This document shows positions 52,655-64,000 of a stretch of DNA of 64,000 nucleotides, in pieces (positions within the stretch are counted from its first letter, which is position 1; each line of letters starts with the position of its first letter). The position numbers and the translations under genes are program-made. The notes under the pieces were generated by a model, which worked only from the letters and a program-made list of their open reading frames with translations, was not told where the DNA came from and did no database searches. Source of the DNA: Tagaea sp. (GTDB lineage Bacteria > Pseudomonadota > Alphaproteobacteria > CACIAM-22H2); contig CBDIIB010000005.1 of NCBI GenBank assembly GCA_965279525.1, positions 992,001 to 1,056,000 of the forward strand, in the 5' to 3' direction.

Positions 52655-54340
52655 CTAGAAGCGCATCGACACGTCCCAGTAGATGCGCAGCGGCCGCTCG
52701 CCCTCGGTGAGCGAGGGCACGCGGGTCAGCGGCTGGGCGAGCTCCAGCCCCGACGACAGCCAGTTGTCGTGCGCCACCTTGATGCCCACGCCAGCCGACG
52801 CGAGCGTCTGCGTGAACGACGAACCGCTGCCGCGCCGGTTCCACGCCCAGCCATAGTCGTAGAAGACGTAAGGCTGCCAGCCGGCCGTGGCGAGATCGCC
52901 GTAGCGGATGTCGAGCGCCGAGCCGGCACCGTTGACACCCGTGATCTCCGACGGATCGTAGCCGCGCCCGAAGCGCCCGCCGCCAAGCGAGAACTCCTCG
53001 CCCGAATAGAGCCGGTTGCGTGTCGCCTGGCCGGCCAGCGTCCACTGGGCGGTGAAGTCGTCGCTCAGGAGCTGGATGCGCCGGATCTCGCCGGTGAACT
53101 TGGTGAATTGCGGCTGCGCGTCGGAGCGGCTGTGCTGCAGGTCGTTCGGGTTCTCGGTGCCCAGCCCGATGATGCCCCGGACGATGCCCGCCGACAGCAC
53201 CGTGGCACCCTGCATGAAGCCCAGATGCGAGAATGTCAGCCGCGCGTCGGTCGCGAGGTAGCGGTCGCGCGTCAGGGGATCGCCGCGCACGAACGTCGCG
53301 GTGCGCGAGACGTAGGCCGACGTGTCGAACACGAGATTGACGCGCCGCGAGCGGATGACCGGATAGGAAAGGCGCGGCCCCAGGCGCCAGGCGGTCGTGT
53401 GGACCTGCAGCGCCTTCAGCGTGTGGCCGGGCCAGCCCCACGAATAGGTGGTGTCCCAGCCGAACACGAGCCCGTCGTCGCCGATCGGCTGGGTGTAGCG
53501 GAACACGCCCTGGCGCAGTTCGCGGTTGCTGTGCCGGGACGGGACCGTCGAGCCGCCGATCGTCAGCTGCTCGTTCAGGCCGAGCAGGCCGTTGAACGAC
53601 GTTTCGGCATAGACGGTGACCGGCCCCTGGAACTTCGACGCGCGGTTCGACACCGTCACGCTCGACTGCACCGTCTTCTCCTCGATCCGCACGAGGAGGT
53701 TGGACGAACCCGGCTCCTTGCCGGGGGCAAGCGTGCCTGCGGCACTGACGCCCGCAAGATCGCCGGCAAGCAGCAGCCCGCGTTCGATGGCCGCGAGGTT
53801 GGCGGGCCGTCCTTCGAAGGCGCGGCGCAGATAGGCGCGGATGCGCGCGCGCGCGGAATCCGAACCGCCGTCGAACTCGATCTCGGAAAGAAAGCCCTCT
53901 ACGACCTGGATGCGGAACGTGCCGTCGCCCACGCGCTGCGGCGGCACGAAGGCACGCGAAAGCACATAGCCGTCGGCCCGGTAGCGGTTCTCGATCGCCT
54001 CGGCCACCGCCGTGATCGCCGACAGGCCGAGCGTCTGGCCGATCAGCGGCTGGGTGAAGGCGGAAAGCTGGGCCGGGCTGTAGACGGTCGAGCCCTCGAC
54101 CGTGATTCGCGAAATGGGAAAGCGCAATTCGTCGACCGCCCGCCGGTCGGGTGCCCGCGGCTGGGCCGGGATCGACAGTTCGAGCTCGGCTTCGGGAACC
54201 GGCAGGCCGCGGCCGGGAATCCGTGGCTCGGCGGCCGGCGGCAGCACGAGCTGGGCCTGGGCATGGGTCGGCGCGACCGCGAGAAGCAGCAGCAAAAAGG
54301 CACGGATTACCAGTCGGGCGGGTCGTTTCGAGTCGGCCAT
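52655..54340 (-). CDS. ShlB/FhaC/HecB (TpsB/Omp85) outer-membrane beta-barrel
   Basis: Signal peptide, POTRA motif YRADGYVLSRAFVPPQ...IQVVEG, EEFSLGG..FGRGY loop, FYDYG, terminal Phe. Confidence 0.9.
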   Translation of the reverse strand: MADSKRPARLVIRAFLLLLLAVAPTHAQAQLVLPPAAEPRIPGRGLPVPEAELELSIPAQPRAPDRRAVDELRFPISRITVEGSTVYSPAQLSAFTQPLIGQTLGLSAITAVAEAIENRYRADGYVLSRAFVPPQRVGDGTFRIQVVEGFLSEIEFDGGSDSARARIRAYLRRAFEGRPANLAAIERGLLLAGDLAGVSAAGTLAPGKEPGSSNLLVRIEEKTVQSSVTVSNRASKFQGPVTVYAETSFNGLLGLNEQLTIGGSTVPSRHSNRELRQGVFRYTQPIGDDGLVFGWDTTYSWGWPGHTLKALQVHTTAWRLGPRLSYPVIRSRRVNLVFDTSAYVSRTATFVRGDPLTRDRYLATDARLTFSHLGFMQGATVLSAGIVRGIIGLGTENPNDLQHSRSDAQPQFTKFTGEIRRIQLLSDDFTAQWTLAGQATRNRLYSGEEFSLGGGRFGRGYDPSEITGVNGAGSALDIRYGDLATAGWQPYVFYDYGWAWNRRGSGSSFTQTLASAGVGIKVAHDNWLSSGLELAQPLTRVPSLTEGERPLRIYWDVSMRF

Positions 54341-54469
54341 CGTCCTGACAACCGTAGTACACGACCGGACGGACTTTTGACAATTCGAGGTACCCGGCAA
54401 GCGTCGGTATTCGTTAAATCTTGTGGATTGAATGGATCGGCGCTAATTGACTCCTTGCGAGGAAAATCC

Positions 54470-55156
54470 ATGTCCATCCCCCCGTTTTCAGCCAAATCCG
54501 CAATTTCCGGCGCGATTCTGGCCGGCTTGCTCGTCGCCGCCGGCCCTGCCGATGCCCAGCAACGCCAGCCCCCCCCGCCGGCGGCGCCCGCCGCACCCGC
54601 GGCAGCGGCGGAGTTCAAGCTCAACGGATTCCGCTCGGCCAATTTCGGCATGACGGCCGAACAGGTCCGCCAGGCGATCCGCAAGGATTTCAGCCTCGGG
54701 CCCGACAAGATCGAGACGGCCGACAACGCGGTCGAACGCACGCAGATCCTTGCGGTCACGGTGAACGACCTGCTGCCCAACAGCGGCCCGGCGCAGGTCG
54801 CCTACGTGATCGGCTTCCGCACCAAGCAGCTCGTCGCGGTCACCGTGACGTGGGGCGGCTCGGTCAACCCGCAGCTTGCACCCGGACAGGCGGTCGAGTT
54901 CGCGCGCATGCTGCAGGGCTATCTGGCGGGCGTGGGGTACAAGCCCGAGACGATTGTCGCCGGCGCCCAGCAGGCGGACGGATCGATCGTGATGTTCCGC
55001 GGCGACGACTCGCAAGGCCGGCGCACGATCGTCGTGCTGGGCGGCGTGGCCGCACCCGAGGGCCAGAAGCCGGCCGGCCCGCCGGTCCTGCAGATCTCGT
55101 ACATCCGCGATCCGCAGACGCCCGACGTGTTCCAGATCCGGAAGGGCGACTTCTAG
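54470..55156 (+). CDS. Exported hypothetical protein
   Basis: GAGG RBS; signal peptide ending ADA-Q, Pro/Ala linker, globular domain starting GFRSANFGMT; first gene of a tight operon. Confidence 0.8.
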   Translation: MSIPPFSAKSAISGAILAGLLVAAGPADAQQRQPPPPAAPAAPAAAAEFKLNGFRSANFGMTAEQVRQAIRKDFSLGPDKIETADNAVERTQILAVTVNDLLPNSGPAQVAYVIGFRTKQLVAVTVTWGGSVNPQLAPGQAVEFARMLQGYLAGVGYKPETIVAGAQQADGSIVMFRGDDSQGRRTIVVLGGVAAPEGQKPAGPPVLQISYIRDPQTPDVFQIRKGDF

Positions 55157-55161
55157 ACGCG

Positions 55162-55677
55162 ATGTTCAAGCGCACGTTCCCCAAGGGCAAGGTCCTGTTC
55201 AAGGAAGGCGATCCGGGGCTCGAGGCGTTTCTCGTCGAAAAGGGCAAGGTGCTGATCCTGAAGATGGGGACCGAGGCGCCGATCATCGTGGCGAGCCTGG
55301 GTTCCGGCGCGCTGTTCGGCGAGATGGCGATCCTCGACGGCAGCCCGCGCATGGCGACCGCCGTCGCGGGCGAAGACACGGTGTGCGTGGTCATCAACAG
55401 CCAGCAGCTCACGCAGCGCATGATGATGCTCGATCCCGACCTGATGCGGCTCGCCACCTCGCTGATGGAGTACGTGCGCTCGACCGTGCCCTTCGAGATG
55501 CGCGCGAAGGCCGGCCTTTCCAACGAAGAGACCGTGCAGGACCGCCACGCGCGCCTGATGCTGCCGCGCCCGGAAGTGGTCGAAAGCTACGGCATCAAGG
55601 ACCCGATGCTGCGCGCGCTGTTCAACATGCTGTGCGACTACACGCGCCGGCGCCTGCCGCCCGCACCGGCCGGCTAG
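55162..55677 (+). CDS. Cyclic nucleotide-binding domain protein with short helical C-terminus (no obvious HTH)
   Basis: LFKEGDPG, FLVEKGKV, LFGEMAILDGSPRMATAVA phosphate-binding cassette. Confidence 0.9.
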   Translation: MFKRTFPKGKVLFKEGDPGLEAFLVEKGKVLILKMGTEAPIIVASLGSGALFGEMAILDGSPRMATAVAGEDTVCVVINSQQLTQRMMMLDPDLMRLATSLMEYVRSTVPFEMRAKAGLSNEETVQDRHARLMLPRPEVVESYGIKDPMLRALFNMLCDYTRRRLPPAPAG

Positions 55678-55681
55678 CGCG

Positions 55682-58600
55682 ATGCAGCCCTTTCGCGCGC
55701 GCTTGCTTGTTGCCGCATTGCTGGCCGGCACGGCCGCCGTTTCCGGCTGCCAGTCGGCGGGAAGCGGCACGGGCCTGTCGCGCGCGGCGGGCGAGAACCT
55801 GTCGGGCGATGCCTGCCGCGCCGAGCCGCGCCGGGGCCAGTCGCGCACCGATACGCCCGTTCTCGACATCACCTGCACGGGCAGTGCGCGCGTCGCGGGA
55901 TCGGTCGTCCAGCTCGGCGCGCAGCGCGGCGCCCCTGCCGACGGGCCGGCACGTCAGGCGCATTTCGCGCAAGCACTGGAATCAAGCGCCCCGATGCGGG
56001 CACTGGGTACGCGCGCCACGTGCGAAACGCCGCAATGGATCGCCACGCAAGCCGAACCCGAACTGCTGGTGGCGCGCTGCGCGCTGAAGGACGGCGGCTG
56101 GCCCTATCTGGTGGCGGGCCTCGCGGCGGGCGACGCGCTGGCGTTCGGCGAAGGCCAGCCGTCGGCTATTCCGGCCCTCGCCCATGCGATGCGCCAGGGG
56201 CTGCCGGGCACGGCCGCGCGCGACGTCGCCCCGCTTGTACCCGCCGAGCGCCAGGCGCTGACGGCGAAGCTCGAACAGGTTTTCGGCGGCGGCACGGCGC
56301 TCGCCGGCGATTCCGCCGGCGCCTATCAGGATTTCGTCGAGCTCGCGCGCCTCTACAACAGCACCGGCAACCACGCGGGCGCCGAGACGGCCTACCGGCG
56401 TGCACTCGAGCTGCAGACCGCGGCCCTCGGCGCCGAGCATGCCGGCATCGGCACGACGCTGACGCTGCTGGCGATGGAGATCTCGAACCAGGGGCGCGGC
56501 GAGGAAGCGGACGCGTTCTTCCGGCGCGCCGAAGCGCTCGTCATCAAGTCGCCCGATCCGGGCGAGTATCCGCGCTATCTGGGCTATCTGGGCATGCATG
56601 CGGCCAACCAGCGCCAGTTCGACCGGGCGCTGGCGGTGGCGCGCGACACGATCCAGCGCCGGCGCGACCTGATCGAGCGGCTCGGCGGCGGCATTCCCGC
56701 CGGGCTCGACGCGGGCGGCGGCGGGTCGATCTTCGGCGGGGCCGTCTTCCTGCAGGCGGAACTGGCGCACGCGCTGATGTTCGCGTCGGCGATGGCGCTG
56801 CGCACCGGCGACCTTGCCGGTGCGGAAGCCCATGCGCTCGAAGCGCGCCGCATCGTCGACCGCACGCCGGGCCTGCCGGCCTGGTGGCAGCCGCAGGCGA
56901 TCGGGCAACTTGGCGAGGTGCTCGCCGCGCGCGGCGATTTCCGCAATGCCGAACGGCTGCTCGCGTCGGCCGCCGAGTTGCGCTTGCGCGTGTTCGGCAC
57001 GGGCTGGCCGGTGGCGCAGGGGCTGATGGCGCTGGGCCGCGCGCAGTCGGCCGACGGCCGCTATCCGGAATCGATCGGGAACTATCGCGGCGCCTTGCGC
57101 CTCATCGTGGCCGAAACGCCGACGCGCAATCTCAATTTCGACCAGATCCGGCCCTTCCTGGAGGCAGGCGAAGCGCAAGGCCGCCGCGTGCCGGCCGAGG
57201 CCGCCGCCCTGCATGCCGAGATGTTCGCCGCCGTGCAGCTGATGCGCGAGGGCACGATGGGCCGTGCCGTCGCGCGCACCGCCCAGCGCGTGGCAGCCGA
57301 CGATCCGCGCATCGCGGCCCTGGTGCGCGACCATGGCGAGGCCACGCGCCGGCGCGACCGGCTGCAGGTCGACCTCGCCGGCGAACTGGGCCGGCCCAAT
57401 CAGTCGCGCGATGCCGCCCGCGTCGAGCGTCTGCGCGGCGAGCTGGGCCAGCAGAACCAGCGCATCGCCGCCCTCAATGCCGAGATCGAGACGGCCGCTC
57501 CCGGTTTCGAGCGGCTGGTGTCGCCCAAGCCCGTCGATCCGGCCACGCTCGCCAAGGCGCTAGGCCCGCGCGAGGCGTTGGCCGTCTATGCGGTCGGGCC
57601 GGACGGCGCGTTCGCGTTCCTCGTGCGCGCGTCGGGCGTCGTCGCGGTCAAGCTCGACACCGACGAAGTACAGCTCGCCGAGCAGGTCAAGGCGCTGCGC
57701 GGCGCTTTCGAGATCCGCGATCGCAACGTCGCCCCGTTCGACACCGCACTTTCCCACCGGCTCTACCGCACGCTCGTGGGTCCGCTCGAGGCCGAGCTTG
57801 CCGGCATCGAGCAGCTCTATGTCGTGGCCAACGGGGCACTCGCGAGCCTGCCCTTCGGCATCCTTGCCGCGGCACCGCCGGCGGCGGCTCCGGCCGGCGA
57901 CTATTCGCGCGTGGCGTGGCTTGCCCGCCGCGTGGCGATTTCCAACCCGCCGTCGGTGCGCGCGTTCCTCGAGCTGCGCGCACTCGCCCGCCGGCCGTCG
58001 GCGCCCGAGCCGCTGCTCGCGCTGGCCAATCCCGATTTCGCCGGCGGTGCGCCGGGCGGGCTTGGCGCCCTTGCCGGTGCGTGCCGCACCGAAGGGGCGG
58101 TACCTTCGGCGCTGATCCGGGCCCTTGCCCCGTTGCCCGAGACGGCCGACGAAGTGCGCCGCGTGGCCGCCACGCTCAATGCCGGCAGCGATTCGCTGCT
58201 GCTGGGGGCCAACGCCACGGCCGCCAACCTGCGTAGCCGCCAGCTCGACCGCTATCGCGTCGTCTACTTCGCCACGCACGGGCTGCTGCCGGGCGAGCTG
58301 CGCTGCCAGGCCCAGCCCGGCCTTGCGATGTCCGCACCGGCAACCGACGTGAGCGACCCGCTGGTCGACGGCCTGCTGGAAGCCGGCGAGATCGCGAGCC
58401 TGCGCCTGGACGCCGATCTCGTCGTGCTGTCGGCGTGCAATACGGCCGCGTCGGGCGAACGGCTGGGCGGGGAATCGCTGTCGGGCCTTGCCGAGGCGTT
58501 CTTCTTCGCAGGGGCCCGAAACCTGCTGGTGACGCACTGGCAGGTCCCCTCGCAGCAGACCGTGGCGCTGACCACGGGCATGTTCGAGCGGCTGGGCGGT

Positions 58601-58747
58601 GACCTCAAGCGCGGGATCGCGCCGGCCCTGCGCGCGGCACAGATGGCGCTGGCCGACGTGCCGGCCACCTCCCACCCGTTCTTCTGGGGGGCGTTCGTGC
58701 TGCAGGGCGACGGGGCGGCGGTGGCGCCGGCGGGCAACCCGAGCTAA
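55682..58747 (+). CDS. Lipoprotein with TPRs and a C-terminal CHAT (caspase-like, clan CD) protease domain
   Basis: Lipobox AVSG-C, Cys-containing N-terminal domain, TPR-like helices, YFATHGLL (His), LVVLSACNTA (Cys), HPFFWGAF. Confidence 0.92.
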   Translation: MQPFRARLLVAALLAGTAAVSGCQSAGSGTGLSRAAGENLSGDACRAEPRRGQSRTDTPVLDITCTGSARVAGSVVQLGAQRGAPADGPARQAHFAQALESSAPMRALGTRATCETPQWIATQAEPELLVARCALKDGGWPYLVAGLAAGDALAFGEGQPSAIPALAHAMRQGLPGTAARDVAPLVPAERQALTAKLEQVFGGGTALAGDSAGAYQDFVELARLYNSTGNHAGAETAYRRALELQTAALGAEHAGIGTTLTLLAMEISNQGRGEEADAFFRRAEALVIKSPDPGEYPRYLGYLGMHAANQRQFDRALAVARDTIQRRRDLIERLGGGIPAGLDAGGGGSIFGGAVFLQAELAHALMFASAMALRTGDLAGAEAHALEARRIVDRTPGLPAWWQPQAIGQLGEVLAARGDFRNAERLLASAAELRLRVFGTGWPVAQGLMALGRAQSADGRYPESIGNYRGALRLIVAETPTRNLNFDQIRPFLEAGEAQGRRVPAEAAALHAEMFAAVQLMREGTMGRAVARTAQRVAADDPRIAALVRDHGEATRRRDRLQVDLAGELGRPNQSRDAARVERLRGELGQQNQRIAALNAEIETAAPGFERLVSPKPVDPATLAKALGPREALAVYAVGPDGAFAFLVRASGVVAVKLDTDEVQLAEQVKALRGAFEIRDRNVAPFDTALSHRLYRTLVGPLEAELAGIEQLYVVANGALASLPFGILAAAPPAAAPAGDYSRVAWLARRVAISNPPSVRAFLELRALARRPSAPEPLLALANPDFAGGAPGGLGALAGACRTEGAVPSALIRALAPLPETADEVRRVAATLNAGSDSLLLGANATAANLRSRQLDRYRVVYFATHGLLPGELRCQAQPGLAMSAPATDVSDPLVDGLLEAGEIASLRLDADLVVLSACNTAASGERLGGESLSGLAEAFFFAGARNLLVTHWQVPSQQTVALTTGMFERLGGDLKRGIAPALRAAQMALADVPATSHPFFWGAFVLQGDGAAVAPAGNPS

Positions 58748-58748
58748 T

Positions 58749-59471
58749 ATGTACGCCATGCGCAACGCGTGGCCCCTCCTCCTCGGCCTGCTGATCGGTG
58801 TCCCGCCCCTCTTTTCCCCGGGGGCCGGGGCGAACGAGCTTGTCGTGGTCGAGGCCAAGGGCGTGGAACTCGCCCCGGGTGCCAAGGTCGACGGCACGAA
58901 GGTGCTGCAGCTTGCCGCCGGCCAGCGCGTGACGCTGATCGCGGCCGACGGGCGCACGGTCAAGCTGCGCGGCCCCTATGAAGAAGCGCCGGCCCCCGCC
59001 GCCGGCCAGACCGCCAGCATGGGCGACGCGCTCAAGAACCTGATGAACCAGCGCGGCTCCGGCACGGCCCAGCTCGGTGTCGTGCGCGCCGCGGGCGACG
59101 CGGCCGAACTGCCCGAGCCGTGGCTCGTGGACGTGGGCCGTTCGGGTGCGCGCTGCCTCCAGGCCAGCGGCGTGCCGGTGCTGTGGGGACCGAAATTCGC
59201 CGCGAACACCGAGCTTGCCATCGAGCCCGCCGACCGCAGCTGGCGCGCCAAGGGCACGTGGCCGGCCGAGACCGACCGGCTGGCGCTCGCCGGCCGCATC
59301 CCGCTTGCCGACGGCGGCTCGTATGTGTTCGACGTCGGCGGCAATCCCGCCAACGTGACGATCCACCGGATGCCGGCGGGCTTCGCCGATCCGGTGCTGC
59401 AGGCGGCCTGGATGATCGAGAAGGGCTGCGAGGACCAGGCGCGGGCACTGGTACGCGAAGCGCAACGTTGA
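58749..59471 (+). CDS. Exported beta-rich protein (FecR-N/DUF928-like partner of CHAT/CHASE2 loci)
   Basis: Signal peptide, beta-strand N-terminal domain, C-terminal WMIEKGCEDQA helix; 1 bp after the CHAT stop; family assignment is inference. Confidence 0.7.
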   Translation: MYAMRNAWPLLLGLLIGVPPLFSPGAGANELVVVEAKGVELAPGAKVDGTKVLQLAAGQRVTLIAADGRTVKLRGPYEEAPAPAAGQTASMGDALKNLMNQRGSGTAQLGVVRAAGDAAELPEPWLVDVGRSGARCLQASGVPVLWGPKFAANTELAIEPADRSWRAKGTWPAETDRLALAGRIPLADGGSYVFDVGGNPANVTIHRMPAGFADPVLQAAWMIEKGCEDQARALVREAQR

Positions 59472-59493
59472 AGATAAGGGCCGGGGGTTGACG

Positions 59494-61494
59494 ATGGAAG
59501 CAGCGGCCGTCGTCAAGCGCGTCGCCACGACGCTCGTCATCGCGGCCATCGCCGGGTCCGTCACGTTCGGCATCTTCTATTTCTTCCCGTTCCTGGGCAC
59601 GGCCGAACGCTGGACGCGCGATTTCCGCATCGCGAACATGTCGCCGCCCGAGCCGCAGCACCCCGACATCGTCGTGGCGGCGATCACGGAAGAAACACTG
59701 TCGTCGTTTCCCTACCGCTCGCCGGTCGACCGCAAGTTCCTTGCCGACACGGTGCGCGCGATCGCGGCCAAGGGCGCCAAGGCGATCCTGATCGACGTGC
59801 TCTTCGACCAGGAGACCGAGGAAGACAAGGACGACGAGCTTCGCGAGGCACTGGCGGAACTGACGATCCCGTTCTCGATCAGCTACTCGGATTCGCCCAC
59901 CTACGTGACCGACGAGCAGCTCGCCTATCTCGACGATTTCGTGAAGCCGGCCTGGCGCGGCCTTGCCGACATCGAGCCCGACAAGACCGACGGCATCATC
60001 CGCTTCGTGCCGCCGCCGCGCCACGTCAAGGACGGCACCTACGTGCCCAACGTCGCGGCCCGCGTGGCCCAGCTGCTGGGCGCGACGATCCCCGACAAGC
60101 AGAGCATCATCGCCTGGCGCGGCGAGCCCGACAGCGCCACGCAGCCCTTCCGCGAATTCCCGGCGCACGCCGTGCGCGTGCTGCCGGAAGCGTGGTTCAA
60201 GAACAAGATCGTGCTGGTGGGTGCCAACCTGTCGCTGACCGACCGCTATCGCACGCCGTTCTCGATCGGCCGCGACGTGGGCGACAACCGCATGGCCGGG
60301 ATCGTGATCCAGGCGCACATCCTGGCGCAGATGCTGGAGATGCGCGTGGCGCCCGAGGAGCGCGCCTTCGTGCCGCATCTCGTGACGCTGGCGCTGCTCG
60401 CGTTGATCGGTGCGGCACTCGGCAGCACCGGCGTGCCGATCTCGGTGCGGCTGGGCGGCGCCACGCTCGCGGTCGTGCTGCTGTGGGCGGCGGGCTGGTA
60501 CCTGTTCAAGGCCGACCATCCCTTCGTGCCGCTGGTCGAGGCGATGACCGGCGGGCGCAACCTGCTTGTCCCGCTGATCGAGCCGATCGTGGCGCTGGGC
60601 ATGGCGCTGTGGCTGTCCGACGCATGGTCGGGGCGCGAAGAACGCCAGCAGAAGAAGTTCATCCAGGGCGTGTTCAGCAAATACGTGTCGGCCGAGCTGC
60701 TGAACGAGATCGTCAAGGATCCCAAGAAGCTCGATCTTTCGGCGAGCCGCCGGCCGATGTCGCTGATCTTCACCGACGTGCAGGGCTTCACGACGCTGTC
60801 GGAAAAGCTCGAGGCCGCCCATCTCGCCGACGTGCTCAACCGCTATCTCGACGGCGGCTGCCGCGAGATCTGGAAGTACGGCGGCACGATCAACCAGTTC
60901 ACCGGCGACGCGATCTACGCGATGTTCAACGCGCCGCGCGAGCAGCCCGACCACGCGAAGCTGGCGCTGAAAGCCGCGCTCGACATCGACACGTTCTCCG
61001 AAGCGTTCCGCGCGGGCGAGCGCGAGAAGGGCGTGGACATGGGCATGACGCGCATCGGCGTGCACACGGCCGAGGCGAACGTCGGAAATTTCGGTTCGCT
61101 CGACCGTTACGAGTATAAAGCGCTTGGCGATGCGGTGAACACGGCCGCCCGGCTCGAAGGCCTCAACAAGTACTTCGGTACACGCATCCTGATCACGCAG
61201 CAGACGCGCGACGCGAGCCCCGAGATCCCGTGCCGCAAGGTGGGCGGCGTGATCGTCAAGGGCAAGAGCGAGCCCATCCATGTCTTCGAGCCGCTGACCG
61301 GCGCGCGCGCAAACGACGAGAACACGAAGCTCTATCTCGCCGCGTTCGAACTCCTGAAGGCGAAGGACCCGGCGGCACTCGCCGCGTTCGAGGACCTCGC
61401 GCAGCGCTACCCCGACGACGCGCTCGCCGAATACCATCTCGACCGGCTGCGCGAAGGCGAGACCGGCGAGGTCTTCGCGATGGCGGAGAAGTAA
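59494..61494 (+). CDS. CHASE2-domain class III nucleotide cyclase
   Basis: TM, CHASE2 (DIVVAAITEETL, IDVLFD, KNKIVLVG, AGIVIQAH), three TMs, FTDVQGFT, GDA, VNTAARLEGLNK. Confidence 0.93.
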   Translation: MEAAAVVKRVATTLVIAAIAGSVTFGIFYFFPFLGTAERWTRDFRIANMSPPEPQHPDIVVAAITEETLSSFPYRSPVDRKFLADTVRAIAAKGAKAILIDVLFDQETEEDKDDELREALAELTIPFSISYSDSPTYVTDEQLAYLDDFVKPAWRGLADIEPDKTDGIIRFVPPPRHVKDGTYVPNVAARVAQLLGATIPDKQSIIAWRGEPDSATQPFREFPAHAVRVLPEAWFKNKIVLVGANLSLTDRYRTPFSIGRDVGDNRMAGIVIQAHILAQMLEMRVAPEERAFVPHLVTLALLALIGAALGSTGVPISVRLGGATLAVVLLWAAGWYLFKADHPFVPLVEAMTGGRNLLVPLIEPIVALGMALWLSDAWSGREERQQKKFIQGVFSKYVSAELLNEIVKDPKKLDLSASRRPMSLIFTDVQGFTTLSEKLEAAHLADVLNRYLDGGCREIWKYGGTINQFTGDAIYAMFNAPREQPDHAKLALKAALDIDTFSEAFRAGEREKGVDMGMTRIGVHTAEANVGNFGSLDRYEYKALGDAVNTAARLEGLNKYFGTRILITQQTRDASPEIPCRKVGGVIVKGKSEPIHVFEPLTGARANDENTKLYLAAFELLKAKDPAALAAFEDLAQRYPDDALAEYHLDRLREGETGEVFAMAEK

Positions 61495-61783: not shown

Positions 61784-62491
61784 TCACGCCGCCATCGACG
61801 CGCGGTCGATGAGGTTGGCCCAGGAATTCATCGAGGCGAAGTGGGCGTAGGCGACGGCGAGCCAGCCGCGTTTGCGCCAGTCGATGAAGGCGGCGTCGGG
61901 GAGCGTGTCGAACTTCGCGCGATCGAGGATGCGGAAGCCGCCGAGCACGATCTTGCGCCCGTCGGTGAGCGCGAATTCCGCGCGGTGGTCGGCGAGCAGG
62001 CCCGCACTGGCGCACGCGGCGGCGAAGGCCTGGGCGGCATCGGCCTGCACCTGGAACTCGCGCGAGAAGGCAAGCGCCTGCTCGACGAGCGGCGTTGGCT
62101 TCTCGCCGTCGAACAGCGGGATGCCGGCATCGCCGATCGCGTCGGCCGCCTCGTCCACGCACAGCACGAGTTGGTCGGCGAGCTGGGCGAAGGCGAAGGG
62201 ATAGCGGCGCACATAGGCCGGCACGTAGCTGCCCGGCCGCCAGTCGCCCGCCTCGTCGACGAAGAGGTTGCGGCCCTTCTCCACGCCGAGCAACGCGATC
62301 AGCCCGCCCGGTTCGGCGGCCGCGAAGACGAGCGGATAGTGGCGCGCGGCCACTTCGGCTTCGGCCGCCCCCAGCGGCACGGCGTTGGTTTCGCGCGCGA
62401 AGCCGAAGCCGACCGGGGCCGTATAGCGCTTGGTGGCGTGCGCCTCGCGCGAGATCGCCACCGGCCGGCGATAGAGGATCGGCTCGTTCAT
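61784..62491 (-). CDS. SapC-family protein
   Basis: YPLVF, ALLGVEKGRNLFV, YVPAYVRRYPF, GWLAVAYAHFASM; ATG overlaps the upstream stop. Confidence 0.9.
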   Translation of the reverse strand: MNEPILYRRPVAISREAHATKRYTAPVGFGFARETNAVPLGAAEAEVAARHYPLVFAAAEPGGLIALLGVEKGRNLFVDEAGDWRPGSYVPAYVRRYPFAFAQLADQLVLCVDEAADAIGDAGIPLFDGEKPTPLVEQALAFSREFQVQADAAQAFAAACASAGLLADHRAEFALTDGRKIVLGGFRILDRAKFDTLPDAAFIDWRKRGWLAVAYAHFASMNSWANLIDRASMAA

Positions 62492-63321
62492 CTTGCGAGG
62501 AACGCCGCGACCGCGCGGTTGAACGCGTCGGGCACCTCGAAATAGGCGGAGTGGCCCGCTCCTTCGAACGACATGTGCCGCGCGTCGGGGAAGCCCTTGG
62601 CGAGGATCGGTGCCGCGAAAGACGGGAAGACCATGTCGGAACTGCCGGTGAGGAACAGCGTGGGCACCTTCAGGTTCGCCACGTCGGCAAGCTTGCGGGT
62701 GCGCATCTTGACGATGCGCGCGCGCAGATCGTCCTTGGGCAGGCTGGTCGCGAGCGCGTCCATGCCGCGATACAGATGGTGCATGGCCGGGTTCGCCTCG
62801 GCCATCGCGGCACCAAGGGCCGGATGGATCGCGCGCATGCGCAGGTCGGCATTGACCGCGACCGCCCGGTTGCTCCATTCGGCGAATTTCGCGGGATCGG
62901 CCTGGGCCGGATCGAGCGTGCCGCTCGTCGCCGCCAGCACCATGGCCTCGACGCGTGCGGGATGGCGCAGCGCGAATTCAAGCGCGGTCCACCCGCCCAT
63001 CGACTGCGCCACGATGGCGAAGCGCTCGATGCCCAGATGGGCCGTCAATGCTTCGAGGTCGCCGGCGAAATCCGCCGGATCGGGTTTCGTACCCGCCACC
63101 GTCGACGGCGCGAAGCCGCGATGGGAGAAGGTCACGCAGGTGTGACGCAGCCGGAAGAACGGCACCTGCTGCCACCACGACAGATGGTTGCCGCCCAGCC
63201 CGTGCGCGAAGACCAGCGCCGGGCCGTCGCCCGCGACCTCGTAATAGATGCGTGCACCCGGCCGCTCGACGAAGCCGGTGCGTTCGGCGCCGTGCGGCGC
63301 CCAGGGTGTCGTGTCGTTCAT
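62488..63321 (-). CDS. Alpha/beta hydrolase
   Basis: VFAHGLGG, HRGF, AQSMGG, GAGHSAYFE. Confidence 0.9.
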   Translation of the reverse strand: MNDTTPWAPHGAERTGFVERPGARIYYEVAGDGPALVFAHGLGGNHLSWWQQVPFFRLRHTCVTFSHRGFAPSTVAGTKPDPADFAGDLEALTAHLGIERFAIVAQSMGGWTALEFALRHPARVEAMVLAATSGTLDPAQADPAKFAEWSNRAVAVNADLRMRAIHPALGAAMAEANPAMHHLYRGMDALATSLPKDDLRARIVKMRTRKLADVANLKVPTLFLTGSSDMVFPSFAAPILAKGFPDARHMSFEGAGHSAYFEVPDAFNRAVAAFLAR

Positions 63322-63410
63322 GGCTGCCATCATCGCGCGCGGCTTGGCGGGCGGCAACTGCCGGGCTAGCCTTGCCTGCACAATTCCGGAAATTCGAGGA
63401 GTCCCGCCCC

Positions 63411-64000
63411 ATGAAATACGTTCCGCTCGGCCGTTCCGGCCTGATGGTAAGCCGCGTGTGCCTTGGCGGAAATTCGTGGGGGGCACGCGGCCGGCGTGCG
63501 TGGGCGGGCTTCGATGCCGGCGACAGCACGCCATTTTTCAAGCGGGCGCTGGATCGCGGCATCAATTTCTTCGACACGGCCGACGCCTACAACCTCGGTG
63601 CGTCCGAGACGATCATGGGCGAGACGCTGATGACCTATGCGCCGCGCGACGAGATCGTGCTCTCGACCAAGATCGGCCTCAAGATGGGCGACGGGCCCAA
63701 CGCGGTCGGGCTGGGCGCCAAGCACCTGCTGGCCGGCATCGACGCGCAGCTGAAGCGCCTGAAGACCGACCATATCGACGTCTACCAGGTCCACCGGCTC
63801 GATCCGCACACGCCGGTCGAGGAGTTCATGTACACGCTCGACGGCATCGTGCGCGCCGGCAAGGTGCGCTATATCGGCGGCTCGACGATGCCGGCGTGGA
63901 AATTCGCCCAGATGATCGCGCTCGCCGACCGGCACGGCTACGCCCGCCCCATCGCCATGCAGAACCTGCACAACCTGATCCAGCGCGAGGAAGAGCGCGA
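63411..64000 (+). CDS. Aldo/keto reductase (partial, runs off the window)
   Basis: Manual translation MKYVPLGRSGLMVSRVCLG...GINFFDTADAY...STKIG...IDVYQVHR...GKVRYIG; GAGGAG RBS. Confidence 0.92.
   Translation, partial: MKYVPLGRSGLMVSRVCLGGNSWGARGRRAWAGFDAGDSTPFFKRALDRGINFFDTADAYNLGASETIMGETLMTYAPRDEIVLSTKIGLKMGDGPNAVGLGAKHLLAGIDAQLKRLKTDHIDVYQVHRLDPHTPVEEFMYTLDGIVRAGKVRYIGGSTMPAWKFAQMIALADRHGYARPIAMQNLHNLIQREEER

Follow-up and report, generated by a model that had tools for sequence, protein, structure and literature searches.

The product of a class III nucleotidyl cyclase is routinely annotated from two residues, Lys with Asp or Lys with Thr being read as cyclic AMP (cAMP) and Glu with a small residue as cyclic GMP (cGMP). 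To our knowledge bacterial cGMP signalling is still known from a handful of systems only. In Cya2 of Synechocystis the two sites are, according to the accessible part of a review, occupied by Glu488 and Gly562, with a supporting Lys two residues before site 2. For PfPucC, from the Pucsar anti-phage system, and for EcPucC the available sections of a preprint report that GTP is turned into cGMP with Mn2+ in vitro (bioRxiv 10.64898/2026.08.12.744502). A receptor pathway with CHASE2 cyclases is described, in the excerpts available, for S. meliloti, where NsrA, CyaK/CyaD1/CyaD2 and Clr supply an outer-membrane partner, CHASE2 receptor cyclases and a cyclic nucleotide monophosphate (cNMP) receptor (PMC7529298, PMC13001267); Clr responds to both cAMP and cGMP (PMC10127613). 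Here we analyse a CHASE2-type class III cyclase encoded by a stretch of 64,000 nucleotides from Tagaea sp. (assembly GCA_965279525.1, contig CBDIIB010000005.1, positions 992,001 to 1,056,000), which is called the window in the following. This enzyme carries Gln at site 1 and Lys at site 2. Judging from the sequence comparisons, the Gln/Lys pair is derived and conserved, is more than chance and is not due to drift, and we tentatively propose, with a little less than even confidence, that the rebuilt pocket accepts GTP and yields cGMP alone or cGMP together with cAMP. As an enzyme kind the class III CHASE2 cyclase is already known; what is new is the uncharacterised pocket variant.

Residue numbers throughout refer to the form of 666 amino acids beginning at ATG 59494, to which the database protein P0002 is identical. 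An alternative in-frame start is TTG 59488 (reading frame 59488..61494), which gives a reading of 668 amino acids. The gene, its domains and the residues discussed below are located in the window as follows.

59494..61494, + strand: CHASE2 - transmembrane - class III cyclase gene, 666 amino acids from ATG 59494
59572..60408, + strand: CHASE2 periplasmic sensor domain (Pfam PF05226, E 9.2e-33, residues 29-307 of the 668-amino-acid reading)
60754..61275, + strand: class III nucleotidyl cyclase catalytic domain (Pfam PF00211 Guanylate_cyc, E 2.9e-14, residues 423-596)
60775-60777, + strand: Asp428 (GAC), first metal-binding Asp (F-T-D), from sequence and alignment
60865..60867, + strand: Glu458, which co-varies with Lys542
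60892..60903, + strand: Asn467-Gln468-Phe469-Thr470, site 1 being Gln468 (CAG 60895-60897), canonically Lys
60907-60909, + strand: Asp472 (GAC), second metal-binding Asp (G-D), from sequence and alignment
60916..60918, + strand: Tyr475, Phe in the sister Lys/Thr clade, from sequence comparison
61069..61071, + strand: Ala526 in place of Gly, from sequence comparison
61111..61119, + strand: Glu540-Tyr541-Lys542, site 2 being Lys542 (AAA 61117-61119), canonically Thr or Asp
61138..61152, + strand: Asn549...Arg553 transition-state pair (N-T-A-A-R), N549 at 61138-61140 and R553 at 61150-61152

With a score of 53.5 bits against a curated cut-off of 21.9 for the PF00211 profile the protein belongs to the class III cyclases. 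NCBIfam offers no named family for the cyclase, nor for the CHAT protein or the small protein of the same operon. The relevant motifs read G-G-T-I-N467-Q468-F-T470-G-D472, R538-Y-E540-Y-K542-A-L-G-D and V-K589-G-K, Glu540 being a retained acidic residue two positions ahead of site 2. In a HMMER alignment to solved class III cyclases the best relative is CyaB of P. aeruginosa (3r5g, E 1.8e-29). Gln468 falls on the substrate Lys of CyaB and of Spirulina CyaC (1wc1), DKFVGD in both, and Lys542 on their substrate Thr (DYTIIG and DFTAIG), and because both lie on substrate residues of solved cyclases the assignment of the two sites is right. The guanylate cyclase Cya2 (2w01, E 1.3e-20) has Glu (IDEFMGD) and Gly (KYGVVG) in these columns. 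The residues, codons and coordinates named for the two sites in an earlier, sequence-only reading of the window were confirmed by translation, by the raw sequence and by this alignment. Descent from class IIIb is indicated by the best solved matches, CyaB and CyaC, and by the nesting of the protein among Lys/Thr CHASE2 cyclases; its pocket is not the Lys/Thr pair of the class IIIb adenylate cyclases.

The whole-genome search covered 50 genomes of the order, 21 of the genus (Tagaea-like Rhodospirillales) and 29 of other genera. Besides its own genome, all 20 further genomes of the genus contain the cyclase gene, with 72-100% identity, and the Gln/Lys pair is found in 21 out of 21. The other genera gave only weak matches in three of the 29 genomes (35-41% identity), with the pockets Lys/Thr, Lys/Ser and Arg/Ser. 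Both residues are retained in 25 of 25 loci, encoded by CAG 24 times and by CAA once (Gln) and by AAG 17 times and AAA 8 times (Lys), and a pair that is fixed throughout the genus with synonymous codon variation is more than chance. Among the 120 closest database proteins (P0002-P0121) 90 have Lys/Thr and 25 Gln/Lys at sites 1 and 2, the rarer pairs being Gln/Ile (2), Gln/Thr, Glu/Ala and Lys/Gly (1 each). The divergent metagenomic members P0024, P0025 and P0031, with 56-63% identity, are also Gln/Lys. A sample of 401 genomes from the class yielded 20 relatives: 17 with Lys/Thr, one with Asp/Ser, one with Gly/Met and one with Lys and an unread site 2. No Gln/Lys representative occurs among the best 150 of a library of representatives at 50% identity, and literature searches, confined to one open-access library, found no publication on a Gln/Lys pair.

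Comparing 25 Gln/Lys with 179 Lys/Thr sequences reveals that the exchange is not confined to the two sites. The Gln/Lys clade has Asn instead of Asp at position 467, Gln instead of Lys at 468, Thr instead of Ile or Val at 470, Tyr instead of Phe at 475 and Lys instead of Thr at 542. Position 458 is Glu in 25 of 25 Gln/Lys sequences, the commonest residues of the 179 Lys/Thr sequences being Ile (84), Val (63) and Ala (15). At position 526 the clade has Ala, where 178 of 179 Lys/Thr and 18 of 18 Glu/Asp-type relatives have Gly. The homolog survey suggested in the sequence-only reading yields, besides a pair kept throughout the genus, five residues which co-vary with it (Glu458, Asn467, Thr470, Tyr475 and Ala526). 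Because seven positions of the pocket region separate Gln/Lys from Lys/Thr, and a near-invariant Gly is lost, we regard this as a remodelling and not as a lone substitution.

Two trees were calculated: a FastTree of 155 non-redundant domains, taken from 245 of 266 candidate sequences, the other 21 having been dropped by filters on motif and length, and a careful IQ-TREE of 36 domains. The two trees give the same picture of these groups. In the IQ-TREE the Gln/Lys proteins form one clade of 6 rows (support 99/93), whose sister is a clade of Gln/Thr and Gln/Ile proteins (100/97); the whole Gln-type clade has 9 rows (99/94). In the FastTree the Gln-type clade is nested in a starred clade together with 14 Lys/Thr rows, and the Cya2-like proteins of the Glu/Asp type form a separate clade. 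Only Asn467, Gln468, Thr470 and Tyr475 are shared by the Gln/Thr and Gln/Ile relatives with the Gln/Lys clade. Because of this partial set the sequences suggest Lys/Thr -> Gln/Thr -> Gln/Lys as the likely path. In a first step Asn467, Gln468, Thr470 and Tyr475 would have arisen from a Lys/Thr ancestor of class IIIb, cAMP-type; in a second step Glu458, Ala526 and Lys542 would have been added to a pocket already without its Lys.

Such changes could also have damaged the enzyme. The protein might be catalytically weak or silent, serving as a regulatory or scaffolding receptor or working only as a heterodimer with another cyclase, since a pocket deprived of its site-1 Lys and of the near-invariant Gly526 could be badly impaired in substrate binding, and the two other CHASE2 cyclases of the genome could in principle act as partners. 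We consider this unlikely. The catalytic set is complete in the alignment to 3r5g, 1wc1 and 2w01: the two metal-binding residues D428 and D472 and the pair N549 and R553, which the sequence-only reading had already described as intact, as well as the phosphate-binding R538 and K589. All six are invariant across the Gln-type alignment and present in all members seen, which would be unusual for a pseudo-enzyme, and a dedicated cNMP-binding gene is retained in the operon. With all catalytic residues intact and under purifying selection the cyclase looks active as far as its sequence can tell, in line with the activity that had been anticipated.

In the scheme which we tentatively favour, the protein would be an active, homodimeric, membrane-bound class III cyclase, gated by its periplasmic CHASE2 domain, with catalysis presumably carried out by the dimer, and it would form the end of a conserved envelope-sensing operon. 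Lys542 would donate a hydrogen bond to guanine O6, and N1-H or N2-H would donate one to the amide oxygen of Gln468. Thr or Asp at site 2 normally takes a bond from adenine N6-H2, for which a protonated Lys should be unable to act as acceptor. The cNMP-binding protein of the operon, the likely receptor, would sense the product, and the module would thus run on a channel separate from the many cAMP cyclases of the cell. In favour of GTP, the CHASE2 cyclase family already includes a proven guanylate cyclase, Cya2. Furthermore, the Watson-Crick-edge residues E118/K195 of PfPucC are equated in the sections available of the preprint with positions K497/D566 of an engineered rhodopsin adenylate cyclase (bioRxiv 10.64898/2026.08.12.744502), which gives a Lys at site 2 a guanylate precedent. 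The legend to Figure 3 of the same preprint names Gly118 and Lys195, the text Glu118/E118. The earlier statement that Gln plus Lys fits neither purine rule was too strong, because both sites have precedents, Gln in a mycobacterial Gln-Asn cyclase and, widely, in zinc-ribbon/AAA_16/TPR cyclases, and Lys in PfPucC. Conceivably bacteria arrived at cGMP synthesis independently a third time with Gln/Lys; this is proposed here with reservations, our confidence in it lying below even.

A number of points weigh against the use of GTP. A Gln amide can hydrogen-bond either purine, adenine included. Gln is not Glu, and for Cya2 the part of the review available ascribes the selection of GTP mainly to the charged Glu. 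The contacts between PfPucC and guanine stem from an AlphaFold 3 model, not from a crystal, according to the available preprint sections (bioRxiv 10.64898/2026.08.12.744502). The mycobacterial Gln-Asn enzyme, named Rv2488c in the part of the source at hand, is an adenylate cyclase whose added guanylate activity depends on the pair. It is the sole Gln-type cyclase with reported biochemistry. We take it to be the enzyme called Rv0386 in the original work. Large cyclases of the STAND type often have Gln at site 1. Both trees retained the trait columns (about 7 of 198), and their root was not inferred. Charge is conserved as well: the Lys/Thr enzymes have Lys468 and Glu540, this cyclase Lys542 and Glu540, and such a charge-conserving swap is the expected look of a compensating relocation of the adenine-N1-binding Lys. 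Finally, the putative receptor gives no hint of a base preference, because its phosphate-binding cassette of the R-M-A type (G-E-M-A-I-L-D-G-x-x-R-M-A) does not track the pocket type of the cyclase: it is found in cNMP-binding proteins beside Gln/Lys, Lys/Thr (L075) and Glu/Val (L105) cyclases. In these stand-alone proteins (from the window, L075 and L105) the phosphate-binding Arg is followed by Met, where well-studied domains have Ala, Ser or Thr, and the best solved relatives of the window's protein are domains of PKG and PKA alike.

The same evidence bears on a reading in which the protein is still an adenylate cyclase, the alternative already named in the sequence-only reading. The N1-binding Lys would have moved to position 542 and Gln468 would have taken over the acceptor role for N6-H2, in a neutral or fine-tuning exchange which leaves cAMP as the product. 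We consider this somewhat less likely than the use of GTP, and it has several things in its favour. The pocket keeps its charge, its Glu540 and one Lys either way, the nearest relatives are all Lys/Thr enzymes of class IIIb, the best solved match is the adenylate cyclase CyaB, and the R-M-A receptor cassette also occurs beside a Lys/Thr cyclase. Gln at site 1 is compatible with the use of ATP in the mycobacterial Gln-Asn cyclase, as far as the source at hand goes, and very many large STAND-type cyclases carry a Gln/Thr pocket. However, the Gln/Thr and Gln/Ile intermediates have no Lys at either site, and therefore Lys542 appears to have been added to a pocket without Lys and not gained in a one-step swap. 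Further changes, from Gly526 to Ala and from Ile/Val458 to Glu, accompany it, a neutral swap should not persist in proteins as little as 56% identical while five other positions stay fixed along with it, and the known enzyme with Lys at site 2, PfPucC, makes cGMP, at least in the account given in the available preprint sections.

Besides the purines, a cyclic pyrimidine, cyclic UMP (cUMP) or cyclic CMP (cCMP), or another non-standard cyclic nucleotide has to be considered, larger residues then taking up part of the pocket. Close to it the side chains are indeed larger at positions 542 (Lys for Thr), 526 (Ala for Gly) and 475 (Tyr for Phe), and the acceptor/donor pattern of uracil is the same as that of guanine O6/N1-H. 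The specificity residues R142 and Q144 of EaPycC lie, in the published material available, in the same hairpin just ahead of the metal Asp D146; to this extent the remark in the sequence-only reading that Pycsar cyclases alter this pocket was justified. Nevertheless we regard a pyrimidine product as very unlikely. The change from Ile470 to Thr makes the pocket smaller-sided and not fuller, the bulky Tyr and Arg residues described for BcPycC in the same partial material have no counterpart at the aligned sites, and there is neither a TIR or transmembrane effector nor a defence-island context.

Membership in Pycsar itself was considered and rejected. The PADLOC profile for PycC (PDLC00734) scores 83 bits for this cyclase and 98-103 bits for three Lys/Thr relatives, so the match is generic; in a control scan four other pocket variants reached 71-92 bits. 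In Pfam the neighbouring protein of 171 amino acids shows the cNMP_binding domain only, with no TIR or transmembrane killing domain. It is likewise scarcely to be expected that the cyclase is a housekeeping synthase of cUMP, cCMP or cyclic IMP (cIMP) read by the stand-alone R-M-A cNMP-binding protein. If true, this would be the first non-defence, envelope-signalling use of cUMP, cCMP or cIMP in bacteria.

The genetic neighbourhood of the cyclase comprises the following genes.

52655..54400, - strand, divergent: outer-membrane transporter of two-partner secretion, ShlB/FhaC type (Pfam ShlB 3.2e-26, POTRA_2 7e-23)
54470..55156, + strand: secreted protein of 228 amino acids with a signal-peptide-like N-terminus and no Pfam family, conserved in the operon
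55162..55677, + strand: stand-alone cNMP-binding protein of 171 amino acids, phosphate-binding cassette GEMAILDGSPRMATAVA (Pfam cNMP_binding 4.7e-20, no other domain)
55682..58747, + strand: TPR-CHAT (caspase-fold) protein with a lipoprotein-like N-terminus (Pfam CHAT 2.7e-58, TPR_12)
58758..59471, + strand: secreted protein of 237 amino acids, no Pfam family, conserved and always directly upstream of the cyclase

The cyclase is the last gene of the + strand run. The same six genes, including the ShlB-type transporter, occur in the same order in all 13 related genome loci with enough flanking sequence; a fourteenth locus is too short. The ShlB-type transporter, the TPR-CHAT protein, a small secreted protein and the CHASE2 cyclase are thus all neighbours, the arrangement of a CHAT-CHASE2 module. 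Elsewhere, Lys/Thr relatives of the cyclase often keep the genes for CHAT, the small protein and the cyclase and sometimes a cNMP-binding gene, and relatives of the secreted protein of 237 amino acids also adjoin Lys/Thr CHASE2 cyclases. Downstream of the cyclase, on the opposite strand, lie genes for a SapC-family protein and an alpha/beta hydrolase (61784-62878 and 62488-63534, both - strand); as listed, these two reading frames overlap, and therefore the SapC start is probably further in.

In its own genome the cyclase is one of nine class III cyclase domains, of which seven have Lys at site 1 and one Gly; the genome also has three CHASE2 cyclases and fifteen matches to cNMP-binding domains. 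A second CHAT-CHASE2 module is located outside the window on contig C5 (1387119-1394678), with a CHAT gene at 1391427-1394678 and a CHASE2 cyclase gene at 1387119-1389917, both on the - strand. This cyclase has a Lys/Thr pocket, and the cell therefore possesses two CHAT-CHASE2 modules in parallel whose pockets differ. With a product of its own the Gln/Lys module would be spared cross-talk with the seven canonical-Lys cyclases, the fifteen cNMP-binding matches and the Lys/Thr module, and for the same reason the idea, voiced before, that the pathway is insulated from cAMP makes sense as a rationale. The third CHASE2 cyclase (C5:1717458-1721300) is of the Lys/Ser type, its site 2 reading DYSAIGD, with a cNMP-binding gene directly downstream on the other strand. 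The class III cyclase with Gly at site 1 (VVNGFIGD) is encoded at C5:123334-124875 and has Thr at site 2.

Looking beyond the genus, a metagenome scan with the Gln-type alignment finds the motif T-[IV]-N-Q-F-T-G-D in many cyclases with zinc-ribbon, AAA_16 and TPR domains (Pfam). Of 51 open reading frames with this motif, 12 have Thr at site 2 and four Lys, the latter all from the clade described here; one is a regular-expression artefact and 34 were unread by the pattern. All 14 printed examples, in which read and unread frames are mixed, show D-Y-T. Two zinc-ribbon/AAA_16/TPR cyclases, L158 and L165, have Glu/Lys with the motifs N-E-L-T-G-D and E-F-K-A-V-G-D, and share N-(E/Q)-x-T-G-D plus E-(Y/F)-K-A-x-G-D with the Gln/Lys clade. 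Glu or Gln together with Lys has therefore arisen in at least two unrelated cyclase lineages, a point which we count in favour of GTP or of a relaxed specificity. At L158:4337-11162 and L165:3419-8975 the paralogues, zinc-ribbon/cyclase/AAA_16/TPR proteins of 1,130 amino acids, stand in tandem, one being Gln/Thr and the next Glu/Lys; they may make different nucleotides or act as a heterodimer.

The Gln/Lys clade is one of several unexplored pocket types and not a unique oddity, because Arg/Arg and Lys/Arg variants are also seen among the CHASE2 cyclases. In a clade with Arg at site 2 and Arg or Lys at site 1 (DRIVGD ... DYRALGD) the proteins P0156, P0168, P0212, P0217 and P0238 have Arg/Arg, and P0184 and P0267 have Lys/Arg. 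Together with Gln/Ile, Gln/Thr and Glu/Lys these types suggest that CHASE2 and STAND cyclases explore pockets beyond the two-residue rule. If Gln/Lys specifies GTP, cGMP signalling in bacteria could be traced by one more simple signature in the sequence, and the pair would show how one cell separates two near-identical CHAT-CHASE2 sensing modules. If the use of ATP was kept, the clade would present a clean case from nature in which a functional lysine has changed its place inside an active site. In both cases the annotation rules for class III cyclases would be refined.

Comparing the locus with the described systems, its overall layout resembles the NsrA - CyaK/CyaD1/CyaD2 - Clr pathway of S. 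meliloti in that a CHASE2 receptor cyclase is combined with an outer-membrane partner and a cNMP receptor; the set of partners is different, and the available excerpts on that pathway describe no CHAT protein. With PfPucC the cyclase has in common a class III-like dimer, a Lys at site 2 and, at site 1, an oxygen-bearing residue in place of Lys. However, the site-1 residue of PfPucC is Glu and not Gln, a correspondence which follows the positions stated in the available preprint sections. In the same sections PfPucC is a soluble defence cyclase with effectors combining a cyclic nucleotide-binding domain with TIR (CNBD-TIR) or of the 3TM type, whereas here a CHASE2 membrane sensor belongs to an envelope operon. 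The mycobacterial Gln-Asn cyclase, of the cyclase-ATPase-LuxR type, and the zinc-ribbon/AAA_16/TPR Gln/Thr cyclases have Gln at site 1 in an identical N-Q-F-T-G-D motif, but their site 2 is Asn or Thr, they are soluble STAND-type proteins, and their catalytic domains are only 33-40% identical to this cyclase.

Fold, metal-binding, transition-state and phosphate residues are those of the class IIIb adenylate cyclases CyaB (3r5g) and CyaC (1wc1). The same CHASE2-transmembrane-cyclase architecture, with 48-57% identity, is found in Lys/Thr CHASE2 cyclases of Niveispirillum, Oleisolibacter, Stellaceae and Sphingomonas, which often share the CHAT and small-protein neighbours too. Unlike these enzymes the cyclase has Gln for Lys and Lys for Thr, besides the changes at positions 467, 470, 475, 526 and 458. 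Synechocystis Cya2 (2w01) has, in the accounts partly available to us, this CHASE2-transmembrane-cyclase architecture and a homodimeric class III domain as well. In place of its Glu and K-Y-G our cyclase has Gln468 and E-Y-K (Glu540, Lys542), and hence not the Cya2-type residues. In Cya2, then, the CHASE2 family offers a case in which altering these two sites turned an enzyme to GTP.

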